Positions 5,839 through 16,978 of a stretch of 16,978 nucleotides of DNA are shown piece by piece (position 1 is the first letter of the stretch; every line of letters begins with the position of its first letter). The position numbers and the translations under genes were made by a program. Source of the stretch: a virus. The notes beneath the pieces were generated by a model, which saw only the letters and a list, made by a program, of their open reading frames with translations, searched no databases and was not told where the DNA came from. The stretch is from the UHGV virus genome UHGV-0207004; one strand, 5' to 3'.

Positions 5839-5867
5839 ATTATAACAGGCACAAAAAAGCCCACCAA
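5839..5867 (-). promoter_or_regulatory. candidate sigma70-type promoter for the packaging operon (extended -10)
   Basis: Minus-strand reading: TTGGTG (5867-5862), 17-bp spacer, TGT-TATAAT (-10 at 5844-5839); overlaps the preceding terminator hairpin. Confidence 0.3.
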
Positions 5868-5878
5868 ATCGGCGGGCT
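5851..5878 (-). terminator. rho-independent terminator ending the phosphoesterase module
   Basis: On the minus strand: AGCCCGCC / GGTGGGCT stem (one G-U pair), 5-nt loop, followed by TTTTTTG (complement of 5851-5857); immediately downstream of the stop at 5886. Confidence 0.5.
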
Positions 5879-7390: not shown

Positions 7391-7428
7391 TTGGTTGCAG
7401 TATGGCCTCTATGTTGGTTGCAAGTCAA
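7391..7428 (-). promoter_or_regulatory. promoter/operator region with two TTGGTTGCA 9-mers
   Basis: Perfect TTGGTTGCA at 7391-7399 and 7414-7422; on the minus strand TTGACT (-35, complement of 7423-7428) and a weak CATACT -10 at 18-bp spacing; directly after a terminator and before the micro-ORF and phosphoesterase gene. Confidence 0.4.
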
Positions 7429-7430
7429 GC

Positions 7431-7457
7431 AATAAAAAGCCCGGATAATTCCGGGCT
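7431..7457 (-). terminator. rho-independent terminator ending the lysis unit
   Basis: AGCCCGGA (7438-7445) / TCCGGGCT (7450-7457) 8-bp stem, 4-nt loop; on the minus strand followed by TTTTATT (complement of 7431-7437); 7 nt after the stop at 7464. Confidence 0.6.
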
Positions 7458-7463
7458 TCATGT

Positions 7464-8142: not shown

Positions 8143-8374
8143 GTTTTACCCCATTCAAAACAGCATTACGCAGTGTGCGCAATGCAAACAGCCAGATTAA
8201 CGCGGTCCAGGTGGCGTCAGATACGTCTCCCGTTTGCAACAGACCGACAATACAGGTCATTGCCGTTAGCAGATACAACACCCGACCGAAGAAGCCATCC
8301 TGAACGGATGGCGCGTACACGTTAAACAGGGACGATGCCCCGATAATCACAAACAACAGGACGGTGATAATCAT
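8129..8374 (-). CDS. holin/antiholin-like small membrane protein (81 aa)
   Basis: Track ORF (171 aa) trimmed to ATG 8374-8372, which overlaps the upstream TGA (ATGA) and has a GGGGGG SD; three hydrophobic segments; 3-prime end overlaps the endolysin start. Confidence 0.5.
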   Translation of the reverse strand: MIITVLLFVIIGASSLFNVYAPSVQDGFFGRVLYLLTAMTCIVGLLQTGDVSDATWTALIWLFALRTLRNAVLNGVKHAIQ

Positions 8375-8661
8375 TTTGCGCCCCCCGGAAGGCGGAACGA
8401 CGCAATCGTCTCCCTGATCCGGGCGGCGATTGGCATCCAGAAGATGGCTGTTACGAAGCCCAATCCGGCGACAGTTCGCTCGCCAGATAGGCCAGCCCAC
8501 TCGGCAATCGCTGGCGCACCGAAAATGGCACACAAGAAGCCGACCACGATGTATAACACGAAGTTTAATGGCCCTTTCGTGGCCTCGCCATGAATGCGAG
8601 CGCCAACGAATCCGCCTGCAAGGCACGCTAGGGCGAATAACCATTCGTTCAGCTTTTCCAT
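8371..8661 (-). CDS. holin-like membrane protein (96 aa, three predicted TM segments)
   Basis: ATG 8661-8659; hydrophobic segments WLFALACLAGGFVGARI, FVLYIVVGFLCAIFGAPAIA, GLGFVTAIFWMPIAA; charged C-terminus; first gene of the holin-holin-endolysin block. Confidence 0.55.
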   Translation of the reverse strand: MEKLNEWLFALACLAGGFVGARIHGEATKGPLNFVLYIVVGFLCAIFGAPAIAEWAGLSGERTVAGLGFVTAIFWMPIAARIRETIASFRLPGGAK

Positions 8662-8695
8662 AAAAAAGTCCCAGTAAGTTTTAGCTCACTGGGAC
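8662..8695 (-). terminator. hairpin plus T6 immediately abutting the holin start codon (tR-prime-like terminator or translational control element)
   Basis: GTCCCAGT (8668-8675) / ACTGGGAC (8688-8695) perfect 8-bp stem, 12-nt loop; on the minus strand followed by TTTTTT (complement of 8662-8667) and then directly ATG 8661. Confidence 0.5.
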
Positions 8696-8713
8696 TATAT
8701 CACGCTTGCATAG

Positions 8714-9001
8714 TTAATCGAAAATGGACCACTTACCGACGCCTTTCCATTCCCACCCTTCCGATCGGACGGCCTCGAACATACGGCCCCCGATCATATC
8801 CCGATACCACAGCCACCACATGCGCAGCTTGGTTGGGTGTTCGGTAATGCCGCGGCGCTTGTATATCTGGAACGTCATCCGGGTAATGCTGGCAGCTTCC
8901 ACGGCAGGCCATACCAGGAATACCCAAATAACTAACAACACTGCCGCGATAAGGCATAGTCCGCAGGCCAGCCCAAACCAATATATCATTTCGTGTAACA
9001 T
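8714..9001 (-). CDS. small membrane protein (95 aa), function unknown
   Basis: ATG 9001-8999 with AAGGGG SD at 8 nt; N-terminal TM helix, Trp-rich C-terminal half; caveat: two other frames are also open here, so coding status is uncertain. Confidence 0.4.
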   Translation of the reverse strand: MLHEMIYWFGLACGLCLIAAVLLVIWVFLVWPAVEAASITRMTFQIYKRRGITEHPTKLRMWWLWYRDMIGGRMFEAVRSEGWEWKGVGKWSIFD

Positions 9002-9122
9002 CGTATTGCCCCTTCTGGTTGTCCGATGTGGCGCGCCCAGGCACGCGCCACGAAGTAATTGCGGAACACTCGCCCGCCTATCTCAAAGCGGTTGTGCATG
9101 AGTATATCGCGGATGGTCGCAC

Positions 9123-9695
9123 TCATTTCAGAATCACCGAGCGCGGGTCGATGACGGTCATGTTGCCGTCCGGTTCGACACGGATGAATCCAACGCCATA
9201 CTCTTTAGCGTGGCGCTGTGCATTCGTCACGGCGTCAAAGCGATTGATGATTTCACGCGTTGCCTGGCGGATCGGCTCCATCACTTTGCTCGCGTCGTAG
9301 GCTGCATAGGCGGTCTGTGACTTGCGGAACTCAACGCGCTCATGTGGCTGGCGGATGCGCAGGCAGTATTTACGCCCCACTCGCTCGTAGTTGACCAGCC
9401 CGAAGTAAGCCACGCTCTTAACCATGTTGCCGGTACCGCCCTCCTTGCGGGTCTGCATACGAATGCAATAAAAACCAACATTCTCCACAATCCACAGCTG
9501 CCCGTCGCGAATATCCCGCAGCACATCGCCGCGCTCAATATCGTGGGTGAGTACGTCGAAGTTTTCCGACAGCTTGTCTTTCTTCGCCCACCACACCCGA
9601 CTACCTGCCGCGTTTTGCAAGCGGACGTAGGAATCCAGGGTCTGGATCGGCTTCAGGATGCATCCATCCCATTTACGGCGGAATAGTAATTTCAT
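9123..9695 (-). CDS. hypothetical protein (190 aa)
   Basis: ATG 9695-9693 overlapping the upstream TGA (ATGA); no motif recognised; last gene before the late leader and holin genes. Confidence 0.55.
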   Translation of the reverse strand: MKLLFRRKWDGCILKPIQTLDSYVRLQNAAGSRVWWAKKDKLSENFDVLTHDIERGDVLRDIRDGQLWIVENVGFYCIRMQTRKEGGTGNMVKSVAYFGLVNYERVGRKYCLRIRQPHERVEFRKSQTAYAAYDASKVMEPIRQATREIINRFDAVTNAQRHAKEYGVGFIRVEPDGNMTVIDPRSVILK

Positions 9696-9961
9696 TTGCT
9701 CAGTCTCCAGTGTTTGCCTGCCCGCTCAATGGCAGGCTTTCGGCGTAATGTAATACGGATCCCCATTGGTTGCAAGGAAGTCCGCACCCTGAAATCATGT
9801 TGTGCTGCGAACTGGTGCAGGTAGCGAGTCTGCGTAAGTGGCTTCGCATCATCGCGATAGCTCCAGTACACAGAATCGCCCTCAATCGCATTCTGCGCCC
9901 ATATTCGTATGCAATGCAGGGGAATGCCCCATGAAAGCTGTTTAGCTCGCCTCCGGCTCAT
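9692..9961 (-). CDS. hypothetical basic protein (89 aa)
   Basis: ATG 9961-9959 with AAGGGG SD; Arg/Trp-rich; translationally coupled to the downstream gene; contains an internal TTGGTTGCA at 9766-9774. Confidence 0.45.
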   Translation of the reverse strand: MSRRRAKQLSWGIPLHCIRIWAQNAIEGDSVYWSYRDDAKPLTQTRYLHQFAAQHDFRVRTSLQPMGIRITLRRKPAIERAGKHWRLSK

Positions 9962-10276: not shown

Positions 10277-10470
10277 CGTTCAGTCCTCTTCGTGATGGTT
10301 ACGCTATCCAGGAATTGCAGCAAGGCCTCTTGCGCCTTTACACGCAATCCGGCGTAGTGGCGCGATTTCTTAATGTCGCCGACCATGTACGCTGCGCGTG
10401 CTTGCAAATCAGCTTTGTTCTCGGCCTCAATCAGTTCCAGCAGTTCGTCTACCAGGTCTTCGTGGTCCAT
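10273..10470 (-). CDS. hypothetical acidic helical protein (65 aa)
   Basis: ATG 10470-10468 with GAGGA SD at ~10 nt; first gene downstream of the promoter and repeat region. Confidence 0.5.
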   Translation of the reverse strand: MDHEDLVDELLELIEAENKADLQARAAYMVGDIKKSRHYAGLRVKAQEALLQFLDSVTITKRTER

Positions 10471-10485
10471 TGTTCAATCCTCATG

Positions 10486-10531
10486 TTGGTGTGCAACCAA
10501 TATATCAGTGTGCCCGGCCGGATGCAACCAA
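10486..10531 (-). promoter_or_regulatory. sigma70-like promoter overlapped by two TTGGTTGCA sites
   Basis: Minus-strand reading: -35 TTGCAT (complement of 10522-10527), 17-bp spacer, -10 TATATT (complement of 10499-10504); 9-mer copies at 10523-10531 and 10492-10500 (complement); the 21-mer TATATTGGTTGCACACCAACA is shared with 16579-16599. Confidence 0.45.
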
Positions 10532-10680
10532 TATTAATCACGCGCATGAAAAAGTTGATCGCTATCTGCTGCAACTGCAAACTGCATTTTTCACTCTCCA
10601 TTCTGCAACTCGCATTGGTTGCCGAGTTCATCGACGACCGCAATTTGCATCATGTTGCCGTGGATTATGCAATCCTGGAT

Positions 10681-11000
10681 TTTATGCAGTCTCAGACGAG
10701 GGGGGTGCCAGACCCCCCGTCTAGTCTGAAAGACTGGGGTGCTGTCCCGCTGTCCCGATCGGCTAAAACCCGCGGCAGCACTGGCGGGGACGGGGTGCTG
10801 TCCCGCTTTGTCCCGCCTCAATTTTGTCCCGCTTTTGTCCCGTTTGTTTTATGCATGAAAACTGAATAGGTATGCACTTTTCAGAGGGGTGCCAGATCGG
10901 GACGTCCCGCCTGTCCCGCTTTTAGTTTATGCAATAAAAGTAAATAGGTATGCAGTTTTTGAGGGGCGGGACAAAACGGGACGTCCCGCTTGTCCCGCTT
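10681..11000. repeat. ORF-free iteron array: three imperfect ~75-bp tandem modules carrying GTCCCGC heptamers (~10 direct, 3-4 inverted copies)
   Basis: GTCCCG(C) at 10744, 10752, 10800, 10810, 10826, 10837, 10904, 10913, 10983, 10992 (pairs 8-11 bp apart); inverted CGGGAC at 10898, 10967, 10977; modules start TTTATGCA at 10681, 10849, 10926 and share GAGGGG(TGCCAGA) and AATAGGTATGCA blocks; no ORF of 60 aa or more on either strand. Confidence 0.7.
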
Positions 11001-11002
11001 CA

Positions 11003-11679
11003 TTATGCGGGGTTTTGTTGCGCCATTTCATCGAGCGCGATTCGTTCCATTAGCTTGATATCTTTAAACGCGCGCTGCTCGTTTTCGATACCGTGCATCT
11101 TAAATAACCATTCCAGCACGCCATAGTCGATGCCGTATGCGCCACCGAATCCGGTGCGCCATTGCGTAGAGCAATCTGTGAAGACTGCGACTACCTTCGC
11201 GTTGTCGGGCCATAGCGCAACAGGCGGGCAAACGTCTTCAGGTGCCGCGCCCCATAAACTCGCGGCTAAGTCCTCTGATGGTGGCGGCGGACCGTAAAAT
11301 CGCCTCGCCGCCTCAATTAGTTTTTTTCACGCAGTCCCATCAGTTCGAGATAGTACGAGGTGTGGAACACGCCAAACGCGCGCGGATAGTTTACCACCAG
11401 GCGGCGAACGTTCTCCGCGTTAAATTCGTCCGGCAGGTTCCAGCCTTCAGCGACGTGCATGATGGCCTCAACCATAACGTTAAAGCCATCCGGGTCGTTG
11501 TCGTCATATTCTGATAGCTTGCGTTCCGTTTCCTGCATGGTCTGCGAAAATTCGTCAATCGGGCGGTGGCGGACGGTAAACGTCATCTTGCCTGGTTCGT
11601 TCTCACCAGGGCGCGGGATCTCAATCGGCAGCTTAAAGGTCGGCTTAGGGTCAAGTGTGAAGAGTGGTGCTTTAGCCAT
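11003..11679 (-). CDS. tail assembly chaperone GT fusion (predicted -1 programmed frameshift product)
   Basis: Slippery run GAAAAAAAC (complement of 11320-11328) at the last codons of G; the -1 frame has a stop 2 codons upstream of the slip site, then stays open for ~105 codons to TAA 11005-11003 with no plausible start codon or SD of its own. Confidence 0.45.
11317..11679 (-). CDS. tail assembly chaperone G (120 aa)
   Basis: Track ORF (TTG 11694) trimmed to ATG 11679-11677 with GGAG SD; small acidic protein directly downstream of the major tail protein gene and ending in a slippery A-run. Confidence 0.55.
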   Translation of the reverse strand: MAKAPLFTLDPKPTFKLPIEIPRPGENEPGKMTFTVRHRPIDEFSQTMQETERKLSEYDDNDPDGFNVMVEAIMHVAEGWNLPDEFNAENVRRLVVNYPRAFGVFHTSYYLELMGLREKN

Positions 11680-16555: not shown

Positions 16556-16599
16556 TTGCAATCCTGGTGTTGGTTGCATATATTGGTTGCACACCAACA
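16556..16599 (+). promoter_or_regulatory. plus-strand sigma70-like promoter overlapped by two TTGGTTGCA sites, in a divergent intergenic region
   Basis: -35 TTGCAA (16556-16561), 17-bp spacer, -10 TATATT (16579-16584); 9-mer copies at 16570-16578 and 16583-16591; the 21-mer 16579-16599 is the reverse complement of 10484-10504; a GAGCGGG/CCCGCTC hairpin at 16489-16505 lies in the scaffold gene leader. Confidence 0.45.
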
Positions 16600-16619
16600 G
16601 AGATATGAAGGAAAACAAG

Positions 16620-16934
16620 ATGACTAACATGACCGTAGCAACTCCAGTAGACGTAGCAATGACCCGTTTCAATAAAGCTACCGTAGCTAAAACCTTCACC
16701 TTTCATGCTATGCGTAACGCCGAAGCGCTGAATCTGTGCCAGAGCATGAATGCTACTGAAGCAGCGAAGGCCGCAATCAATTCCGCATCCTTCGATAACC
16801 CGGCTTGCGGTCTGGTTCCGGCATCTTTCATCAAATCCCTGGTAGAAGCCTTTAACGATTTCATGTGCGTCGATGCCGTTGAAGCCGTATGCGCTCGCTT
16901 AACTTCCACCGGTGGCAACATCAAGTTTAACTAA
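16620..16934 (+). CDS. hypothetical protein (104 aa), divergent from the structural operon
   Basis: ATG 16620 with AAGGA SD at 7 nt (in-frame ATG 16605 lacks an SD); ends TAA 16932-16934; followed by a GGGGC-GAAA-GCCCC hairpin near the window edge. Confidence 0.5.
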   Translation: MTNMTVATPVDVAMTRFNKATVAKTFTFHAMRNAEALNLCQSMNATEAAKAAINSASFDNPACGLVPASFIKSLVEAFNDFMCVDAVEAVCARLTSTGGNIKFN

Positions 16935-16978
16935 ACTAAACCAAACGGGGCGAAAGCCCCAACCACGAGGACACAAAA

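Follow-up and report, generated by a model that had tools for sequence, protein, structure and literature searches.

In bacteriophage T4, the genes e, soc, 49 and I-TevI carry a hairpin that sequesters the ribosome-binding site (RBS) on early read-through RNA, and a late promoter lies inside that hairpin (PMC3014915, PMC2988022). We examined a 52-nucleotide (nt) spacer that precedes the holin gene of the UHGV virus genome UHGV-0207004. The whole stretch analyzed (16,978 nt, hereafter the window) is from a Dhillonvirus (HK578-like virulent E. coli siphophage), and in the studied region it showed 85-88% identity to many Dhillonvirus genomes (e.g. KarlBarth and WF5505). As in T4 gene e, the Shine-Dalgarno (SD) sequence and/or AUG of a lysis gene is predicted to be paired in a helix on transcripts that arrive from upstream. 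The spacer differs from gene e in that its promoter-like element is of the host sigma-70 extended -10 type, whereas T4 uses a gp55 late promoter (TATAAATA). In addition, the gene is a holin and not an endolysin, and the phage is an unrelated siphovirus. The helix of the Dhillonviruses and of the lineage of Klebsiella phage KLB22 also carries a U-tract and should terminate transcription as well. Superimposed termination is not known to have been described for the T4 cases.

Other described systems share part of this arrangement. Translation of the IS10 and IS50 transposases is reportedly inhibited by fold-back of transcripts from outside promoters, as Davis, Simons and Kleckner are said to have found in 1985 and Krebs and Reznikoff in 1986. 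The likeness is that the extra 5' segment of the read-through RNA pairs with the ribosome site and that the element's own promoter yields RNA whose 5' end already lies within the paired stretch; IS10 and IS50 are mobile elements without a superimposed terminator, whereas the gene here is a phage lysis gene. The lambda pR'-6S leader-tR' region likewise places a terminator before holin, endolysin and terminase/head genes, with a gene in a regulatory position just upstream. However, the window has no non-coding leader and no Q-family protein, the corresponding Kagunavirus hairpin is no terminator, and the promoter-like element overlaps the terminator, while that of lambda lies ~190 nt upstream.

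The sdi stem-loop of lambda S is a dual-start holin/antiholin control that chooses between two start codons. In both cases a holin gene begins with an RNA stem that would affect translation initiation, but the holin of the window has a single start; two in-frame start codons a few codons from each other were not found at its N-terminus (MEK.../MDK...), and the next Met is at about residue 76. With an ordinary intrinsic terminator the spacer shares a GC-rich stem, a short loop, a U-run, co-directional orientation and a place at the end of an operon. It differs in that the whole 52 nt are over-conserved, the U-run reaches right up to the start codon that follows, and the gene beginning there has the 3' arm as its SD. 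The element is best described as a more compact form of the known T4 gene e-type control, apparently kept in several siphophage lineages.

Hairpin and ribosome-binding site of the holin gene

The signals at the junction are as follows.

8662-8713, minus strand: intergenic spacer of 52 nt between a gene for a 95-amino-acid (aa) protein and the holin gene; it houses all junction signals
8667-8696, minus strand: hairpin of 12 base pairs (bp) with one G.U pair and 6 G-C pairs; 5' arm (anti-SD) 8696-8685, loop 8684-8679 (6 nt), 3' arm 8678-8667
8662-8667, minus strand: T6 run, the terminator U-tract doubling as SD-to-AUG spacer; it adjoins the ATG at 8661
8669-8672, minus strand: Shine-Dalgarno-like GGGA inside the 3' arm, ending 7 nt before the ATG
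8694-8702, minus strand: putative extended -10, TG-A-TATAGT (TGATATAGT), with T-12, A-11 and T-7; it overlaps the 5' arm
8716-8721, minus strand: candidate weak -35-like hexamer TCGATT with a 16-nt spacer, from a position-weight scan
8686-8687, minus strand: predicted transcription start, 7-8 nt past the -10 and within the last 3 nt of the 5' arm

The 12-bp hairpin was the strongest in the scan (-24.1 kcal/mol, z = -6.5), and none of 200 shuffled sequences equaled it. It is a stable, GC-containing hairpin on the transcribed strand with a T-run immediately after it, and together with the T6 run (8696-8662) it is, by these features, a genuine intrinsic terminator. The same site carries a putative-terminator annotation in the GenBank record of phage WF5505 and likewise in related records. 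An Rfam search gave nothing at the gathering score, neither a put-like nor another known RNA, and a sub-threshold match to NsiR1 at 8660-8712 was dismissed as a mere hairpin with a U-tail.

The original prediction, made by a model from the window's letters, held that the T-run touching the start codon left no room for an SD. However, GGGA fits at this distance, within the 3' arm. Its duplex with the 16S tail was -3.9 kcal/mol, the second weakest among 16 genes checked. Partition-function folds gave GGGA an unpaired probability of 0.000 on the long read-through RNA and of 0.53 on RNA from the predicted promoter. The same contrast between long and short RNA was obtained for three relatives, in which the SD had an unpaired probability on the long RNA of 0.000 (L016, a divergent Dhillonvirus relative), 0.002 (Kagunavirus K1ind3) and 0.007 (KLB22). 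Serratia phage Scapp was the exception, with no contrast (0.18 long, 0.17 short). Pairing of the SD on upstream-derived transcripts, as in T4 gene e, was thus predicted in the window, L016, K1ind3 and KLB22.

Promoter-like element overlapping the 5' arm

The nine bases of the extended -10 were invariant in 18/18 aligned sequences (the window and 17 relatives), L016 included. They have the composition of a sigma-70 extended -10: TG occupies -15/-14, and the hexamer includes T-12, A-11 and T-7. Between genera, the variable base 'n' and positions -9/-8 differ, and TG, TAT and T-7 are retained. The natural Dhillonvirus variants L069-L071 change TATAGT to the consensus TATAAT at the cost of one stem pair.

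We scanned for promoters with a crude sigma-70 weight matrix built from approximate consensus frequencies. In the window the site came 18th among 33,860 positions, and in L016 it came first among 10,480. Most higher-ranking sites in the window lie after terminators, just upstream of genes, for instance TGTTATAAT ahead of the small terminase gene. RNA from the predicted start would lack the full 5' arm, so that the hairpin could not form on it. Another candidate, a leader promoter at 8988 (TGATATATT, inside the 95-aa gene), has a good extended -10 in the window and was rejected, as A-11 is lost in most relatives (TTTATT).

Conservation of the spacer in Dhillonviruses

Mean pairwise identity of the 52-nt spacer was 97.8% among 17 Dhillonviruses, compared with 75.9% at third codon positions of the flanking genes, and the hairpin arms were 99.5% conserved within the genus. 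Variation was limited to the base after the stop codon, the loop with its closing pair, and the length of the T-run. The T-run was T6 or T7 among relatives, and phage SO-1 has an A inserted between stem and T-run. L016, whose holin is 71% identical, retains the hairpin through compensated arms (AGTCCCCAGTGAG / CTTACTGGGGCT) with a different loop, and CGTGATATAGT is unchanged in it. The structure is therefore kept in relatives with compensatory change, both in L016 and in three stem versions of the KLB22 lineage. As judged from these alignments, primary-sequence conservation of the spacer exceeds what a simple terminator needs.

The same geometry beside homologous holins

Kagunaviruses and a Jerseyvirus, with holins 46-50% identical to that of the window, carry the spacer TTAGGATAATTCCTA(C/A)CCGTG(G/C)TATCCTCCAG, a loop, and CTGGAGGATTCATC-TTG. 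Their hairpin has 9-13 bp, its 3' arm is a strong SD (GGAGGA), and it has no T-run. A promoter-like TTAGGA-16-TG(G/C)TATCCT overlaps the 5' arm with its -10. The element was nearly invariant across 33 IMG/VR loci, even where the upstream gene was different. A holin alignment used as the query against IMG/VR gave the same 15 loci as a single-sequence query.

In KLB22 we found TTGACC-17-TACTAT followed by the hairpin, T7 and ATG, and this promoter-like site ranked first of 7,590 positions in the locus. Across six sequences of the KLB22 lineage, TTTGACC and TAnnAT were invariant, while the 17-18-nt spacer between them was unrelated in sequence from phage to phage. Stem changes in this lineage were compensated (CCCCGGA/TTCGGGG, GCCCCGGTAA/TTATCGGGG and CCCCAAA/TTTGGGG), and the T-run persists. 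As far as an alignment can indicate, a sigma-70 promoter that borders on a structured element classically leaves such a footprint. Scapp has TTTACC-18-TAATCT, directly followed by GGCCCC...GGGGCT and a TTG start.

By sequence prediction, the window, L016, the Kaguna- and Jerseyviruses, KLB22 and Scapp all have a -10 that touches the 5' arm or overlaps with it, and in each lineage with the hairpin the predicted start lies where the 5' arm ends or just beyond. In all of these lineages the SD falls in the 3' arm, whose end is 6-7 nt ahead of the start codon. In a comparison between lineages, the best partner of each 5' arm was a 3' arm from its own group, and the Kaguna and Jersey arms are nearly interchangeable. 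The core shared with the Kaguna- and Jerseyviruses is a predicted SD sequestration with a putative nested promoter, to which a T-run, and presumably termination, is added in the Dhillonviruses and the KLB22 lineage and is less strictly kept. The arrangement was not found in Pantoea phage MED16 (terminator ~85 nt upstream, normal SD), Erwinia phage RF1 (divergent promoter region) or Pectobacterium phage Arno162 (neither feature), so the design is not universal in the holin family.

Two further observations concern these relatives. Kagunaviruses (L019-L056) carry an inverted repeat TTAGGA-TAAT-TCCTAA ~50-65 nt upstream of the holin start, overlapping the putative -35. It is perfect in many Kagunaviruses and has a one-base variant in one arm elsewhere, and it may be an operator or a small hairpin. 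The records of Salmonella phage TU03 (L063) and Raoultella phage RP180 (L064) begin the holin at a downstream ATG or GTG; the conserved TTG after a correctly spaced GGAGGA is the more likely start.

Proposed mechanism

We propose that a terminator, an anti-SD hairpin and a nested host-type promoter are overlapped within the 52 nt, and we give this full model a probability of roughly 0.55. Transcripts from upstream, for which the strong promoter-like TTGCAT-17-TG-TATATT at 10504 is a likely source, would run through an operon of small genes (190-, 46- and 95-aa) that the 12-bp hairpin and U6 would end. On RNA that reads through, the sole SD-like sequence of the holin would be locked in a helix of about -20 kcal/mol and would be poorly translated. 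The extended -10 sigma-70 promoter would start RNA at ~8687, at the end of the 5' arm. Without the anti-SD arm this RNA would meet no terminator, would enter the lysis cassette, and would have its ribosome site open. The holin would be made solely from its own promoter and would be doubly insulated from upstream (earlier) transcription. The U-run would serve as the SD-AUG spacer and perhaps also as an S1-binding U-rich leader. Of the components of this model, the hairpin, the U-tract, the place of the SD, the conservation and the covariation are seen directly in the sequences and their comparison; the activity of the promoter, its start site, how efficiently transcription terminates and the effect on translation are inferred.

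Genes around the junction

The minus strand carries all genes relevant here, listed in transcription order.

9961-9692, minus strand: 89-aa gene, ahead of the 190-aa gene
9123-9695, minus strand: 190-aa gene without assigned function, phrog_10243 match
8986-9126, minus strand: 46-aa gene, phrog_13628 (E 7e-36); its ATG overlaps the stop codon of the 190-aa gene (ATGA)
9028-9051, minus strand: perfect 8-bp stem with an 8-nt loop (GTGGCGCG/CGCGCCAC), inside the 46-aa gene
8714-9001, minus strand: 95-aa gene with an N-terminal hydrophobic segment, phrog_2531 (E 1e-36)
8371-8661, minus strand: holin gene (96 aa), phrog_2359, which opens the lysis cassette
8374-8129, minus strand: second holin-like gene, directly after the holin
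8142-7651, minus strand: endolysin, Pfam Phage_lysozyme
7437-7458, minus strand: terminator closing the lysis cassette, then a promoter-like TTGACT-18-CATACT at 7404

In complete relatives, the terminase, portal and head genes come after the lysis block on the same strand. The spacer therefore marks the border at which a set of small genes without known function gives way to those for lysis and morphogenesis. The original prediction had placed a regulatory junction at this point, and the order that follows (holin, holin, endolysin, terminase, head) agrees with it. All features it described (the hairpins, the open frames and the T6 adjoining the holin ATG) were present where it had located them on the minus strand.

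The stretch between the 190-aa gene and the holin had been read as a late leader of the lambda pR'/tR' type with a dubious 95-aa open reading frame. Three frames are open there (8714-9001, minus, 95 aa; 8733-9044, minus, 103 aa; 8724-9101, plus, 125 aa), and codon-periodicity and conservation analysis of the first of them gave the pattern of a conserved protein-coding gene. Variable positions numbered 73/95 at third codon positions compared with 37 at first and 33 at second, the ratio of nonsynonymous to synonymous polymorphism (pN/pS) was 0.26, and the frame was open in every relative. By these measures and its phrog match, the 95-aa frame is a real conserved gene. The 103-aa frame (pN/pS 1.8) and the antisense 125-aa frame (pN/pS 0.58) were both interrupted in relatives and were ruled out as genes. 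The 46-aa gene, which the prediction had overlooked and which contains its first hairpin, was found in 17/17 relatives including L016 (pN/pS 0.13; 33/46 third positions variable). A lambda-type non-coding leader was not found; the stretch upstream of the terminator consists of these two genes under purifying selection.

The perfect 8-bp hairpin at 9028-9051 encodes the near-palindromic peptide VARAWARH. Its fold energy was modestly unusual (z = -2.4; 3/200 shuffles folded equally well). In the 17 relatives its changes were synonymous and uncompensated: GTG>GTT loses a pair in L013, L016 and L017, and CAC>CAT gives G.U in most. Third-position variability within it (4/7 informative, read off the alignment by eye) was the same as in the whole 46-aa gene. 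We saw no evidence in the alignment of selection on the structure itself, and the hairpin was rejected as a regulatory structure.

Searches of Pfam, NCBIfam and PDB with the 190-aa protein and with its alignment of 23 sequences gave no match to any family, the Q families among them, at a cutoff as loose as E <= 5. There were 422 homologues, and the 120 listed were 69-96% identical, the named ones coming from Dhillonvirus-type phages. The protein is fast-evolving, with 38% identity between the window and L016 compared with 64-84% for its neighbors. Its AlphaFold model was beta-rich with a predicted local distance difference test score (pLDDT) of 57. Foldseek matches to Spt5 KOW, the RapA N-terminus and Tudor/MBT were non-significant (E > 0.02 for all and 0.03-0.1 for Spt5 and RapA, template-modeling score ~0.2) and, given the low pLDDT, are unreliable and serve as a lead only. 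No homologue of the 190-, 46- or 95-aa proteins was found in the complete Kagunavirus genome K1ind3, nor in the short loci of KLB22 and Scapp, which cover 1.1-1.8 kb on the upstream side of the holin. These loci carry the holin and the hairpin, and the element therefore appears to travel with the holin instead.

Two local variations were also seen. In some Dhillonviruses (L003, L005, L006 and L015), 98 nt are inserted after the 46-aa gene and before the 95-aa gene, at a point that corresponds to window ~8995. The insertion codes for an additional hydrophobic peptide of 33 aa (MLYVFAVVCGGSLAALVLLASVISLVKYLWGRL), and stop and start codons overlap there. Within the 3' end of the second holin-like gene, a 10-bp hairpin (GCATTGCGCA..TGCGTAATGC, then TGTTTTGAAT; window 8163-8185) sits just ahead of the endolysin SD and ATG. 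It is kept in relatives with a varying loop, and phage rolling has A-U in place of a G.U pair. The hairpin may act as an internal attenuator or in translation.

Other terminators and promoter-like sites

Strong promoter-like sites lie within 30 nt after each of two terminators (5844-5878, 7404-7458), which end the lysis cassette and the two-gene unit next to it, and TGTTATAAT is a perfect extended -10 promoter-like site ahead of the small terminase gene. The genome thus appears to be built of short terminator-to-promoter units. The 9-mer TTGGTTGCA occurred 7 times compared with 0.2 expected, and 0/200 shuffles reached 7. It was located at window 7391-7422, 9766-9774, 10492-10531 and 16570-16591 and not at the holin junction. 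The copies are mostly paired and overlap the -35 and -10/+1 of the promoter-like sites at 10504, 7404 and 16579; TTGGTTGCA is probably the operator of a phage regulator.

The motif TGnTAnAnT stands immediately before two more Dhillonvirus terminators (window 11727-11696; L018 14416-14456, L058 14238-14279, L059 35374-35415). After the major tail gene there is TTGGTC-17-TG(A/T)TAATAT, GGGGCC..GGCCCC and T6, and the TGA TAA is in frame eight codons past the stop. After the tape-measure gene of relatives there is TGATAAAAT, GGCCCTCAC..GTGGGGGCT and a T4-5 run that reaches the ATG of the tail gene behind it, and the 3' arm includes GGGGG; here the TGA of the motif is the tape-measure stop codon. 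These look-alikes may be further 'terminate-and-restart' modules.

The window was colinear with Dhillonvirus genomes except for a jump from upstream of the tape-measure gene to after the helicase-primase gene (10468-11400). It has no counterpart of ~27 kb that hold the tape measure, the tail tip and fibres, and the whole replication module. The junction of the jump falls in a ~200-bp sequence (10682-10878) that aligns to both of these places in KarlBarth, namely the 'repeat regions A and B' of Sodalis phage SO-1. The window end (16599-16978) is contiguous with its start (position 1) in relatives, so the window looks like a 17-kb circle, which could have arisen either because the assembly collapsed through the repeat or as a natural mini-genome formed by deletion. 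Positions 16600-16958 (~359 nt), within the divergent intergenic region between a scaffold-like gene and a plus-strand gene at 1-765, had no counterpart in KarlBarth or rolling.

Weighing of alternative explanations

Several points weigh against the proposed overlap of terminator, clamp and promoter. The site ranked only 18th in the window with a crude matrix, its -35 (TCGATT) is poor, and a constitutive, host-type sigma-70 promoter would by itself leave late timing unaccounted for. In addition, CGUGA, which precedes the stem, is able to form pairs with UUAUG around the start codon, so that selection at the RNA level could partly account for the conservation of the '-10'. Between the -35-like hexamer and the -10, positions 8712-8703 (TATGCAAGCG) are nearly invariant, with two bases differing in L016 alone. 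This is explained by neither a simple promoter nor a simple terminator, and the segment could be a protein-binding site. The look-alike TGATAA-type motifs after the tail genes could be a by-product of tandem stop codons. In the literature searched we found no transcript data for any Dhillonvirus; publications on Dhillonvirus or Kagunavirus transcription, promoters and terminators were limited to genome announcements and automated terminator prediction.

The main rival is a plain attenuator, in which a leaky terminator without an internal promoter lets lysis genes be expressed by read-through, and SD occlusion with a weak SD delays lysis by slow accumulation. It is plausible, and we regard it as possible though on balance unlikely. 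The terminator and the SD occlusion are the most solidly established parts of the junction, and holins are needed in small amounts. The poor -35 and the bases able to pair with the start codon would fit it too, and an attenuator is plausible at the tape-measure look-alike in the middle of the tail operon, which has a hairpin, a T-run abutting ATG and GGGGG in its 3' arm. However, the attenuator leaves unexplained the invariant TTTGACC and TAnnAT around a variable 17-18-nt spacer abutting the hairpin in the KLB22 lineage, the unchanging place that the best promoter-like site takes with respect to the 5' arm in four lineages, and the TATAGT>TATAAT variant that weakens the stem. It also gives Kagunavirus read-through RNA, with GGAGGA locked in the stem, no evident route to translation. 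A more elaborate timer, in which the three superimposed signals would work by transcription interference, is also conceivable, although we think it rather improbable. Upstream polymerases would occlude the holin promoter and stop ~20 nt into its transcribed region, leaked RNA would be untranslatable, and the holin promoter would fire once the upstream promoters were shut off, with a factor binding TTGGTTGCA as the candidate for the shut-off; 'terminate-and-restart' modules would then be general in Dhillonvirus late transcription, given the look-alikes behind the major tail and tape-measure genes.

Antitermination, as in the original prediction, would have the terminator block upstream transcription until a phage factor (the 190-aa protein or another) makes polymerase resistant, like lambda Q. 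A strong terminator right before holin, endolysin, terminase and head genes reproduces the lambda gene order, the function of the 190-aa protein is unassigned, and its best, non-significant fold matches are KOW/Tudor-like domains of RNA-polymerase-binding proteins. We nevertheless consider this reading very unlikely. The 288 nt and 141 nt upstream are genes under purifying selection and not a leader, no Q-family signal was found in the searches above, and the fold matches come from a model of low confidence. K1ind3 in its whole genome, and KLB22 and Scapp in the loci covered, have the element without the 190-aa protein, and this includes the terminator form of KLB22. The Kaguna and Jersey hairpin has no T-run, so termination and antitermination cannot be its conserved role. 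Moreover, the SD would still be sequestered on read-through RNA, and Rfam showed no put-like RNA. The fallback in that prediction, that the hairpin controls initiation of holin translation, fared better and is supported by the comparative evidence at the level of predicted structure. The hairpin could instead serve mainly in RNA processing or stability, as a target of RNase III or by shielding the 3' end of the upstream mRNA, and take no part in holin translation. The stem is conserved, and any terminator hairpin also protects the 3' end of RNA terminated there. Pure stability would not require the 3' arm to be the SD, 6-7 nt before the start codon, in every hairpin-bearing lineage, and we hold this to be the least credible explanation. 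RNase III needs roughly two helical turns, and an RNase III site was rejected because stems of 9-13 bp are too short.

Implications for lysis control

Around this element, several database records are inconsistent on the holin start or the RBS. For annotators, a terminator that touches a start codon and seems to leave no RBS may be functional by design and not an error. If the proposed overlap is correct, phages unrelated to T4 would silence a lethal lysis gene by the trick of T4 gene e, using host-type promoters. It would also be a case of extreme compaction, in which the roles of terminator, anti-SD clamp and promoter discriminator would fall to a single hairpin. The junction would then offer a testable handle on lysis timing in the Dhillonviruses and the Guernseyvirinae, which are common in phage-therapy collections.

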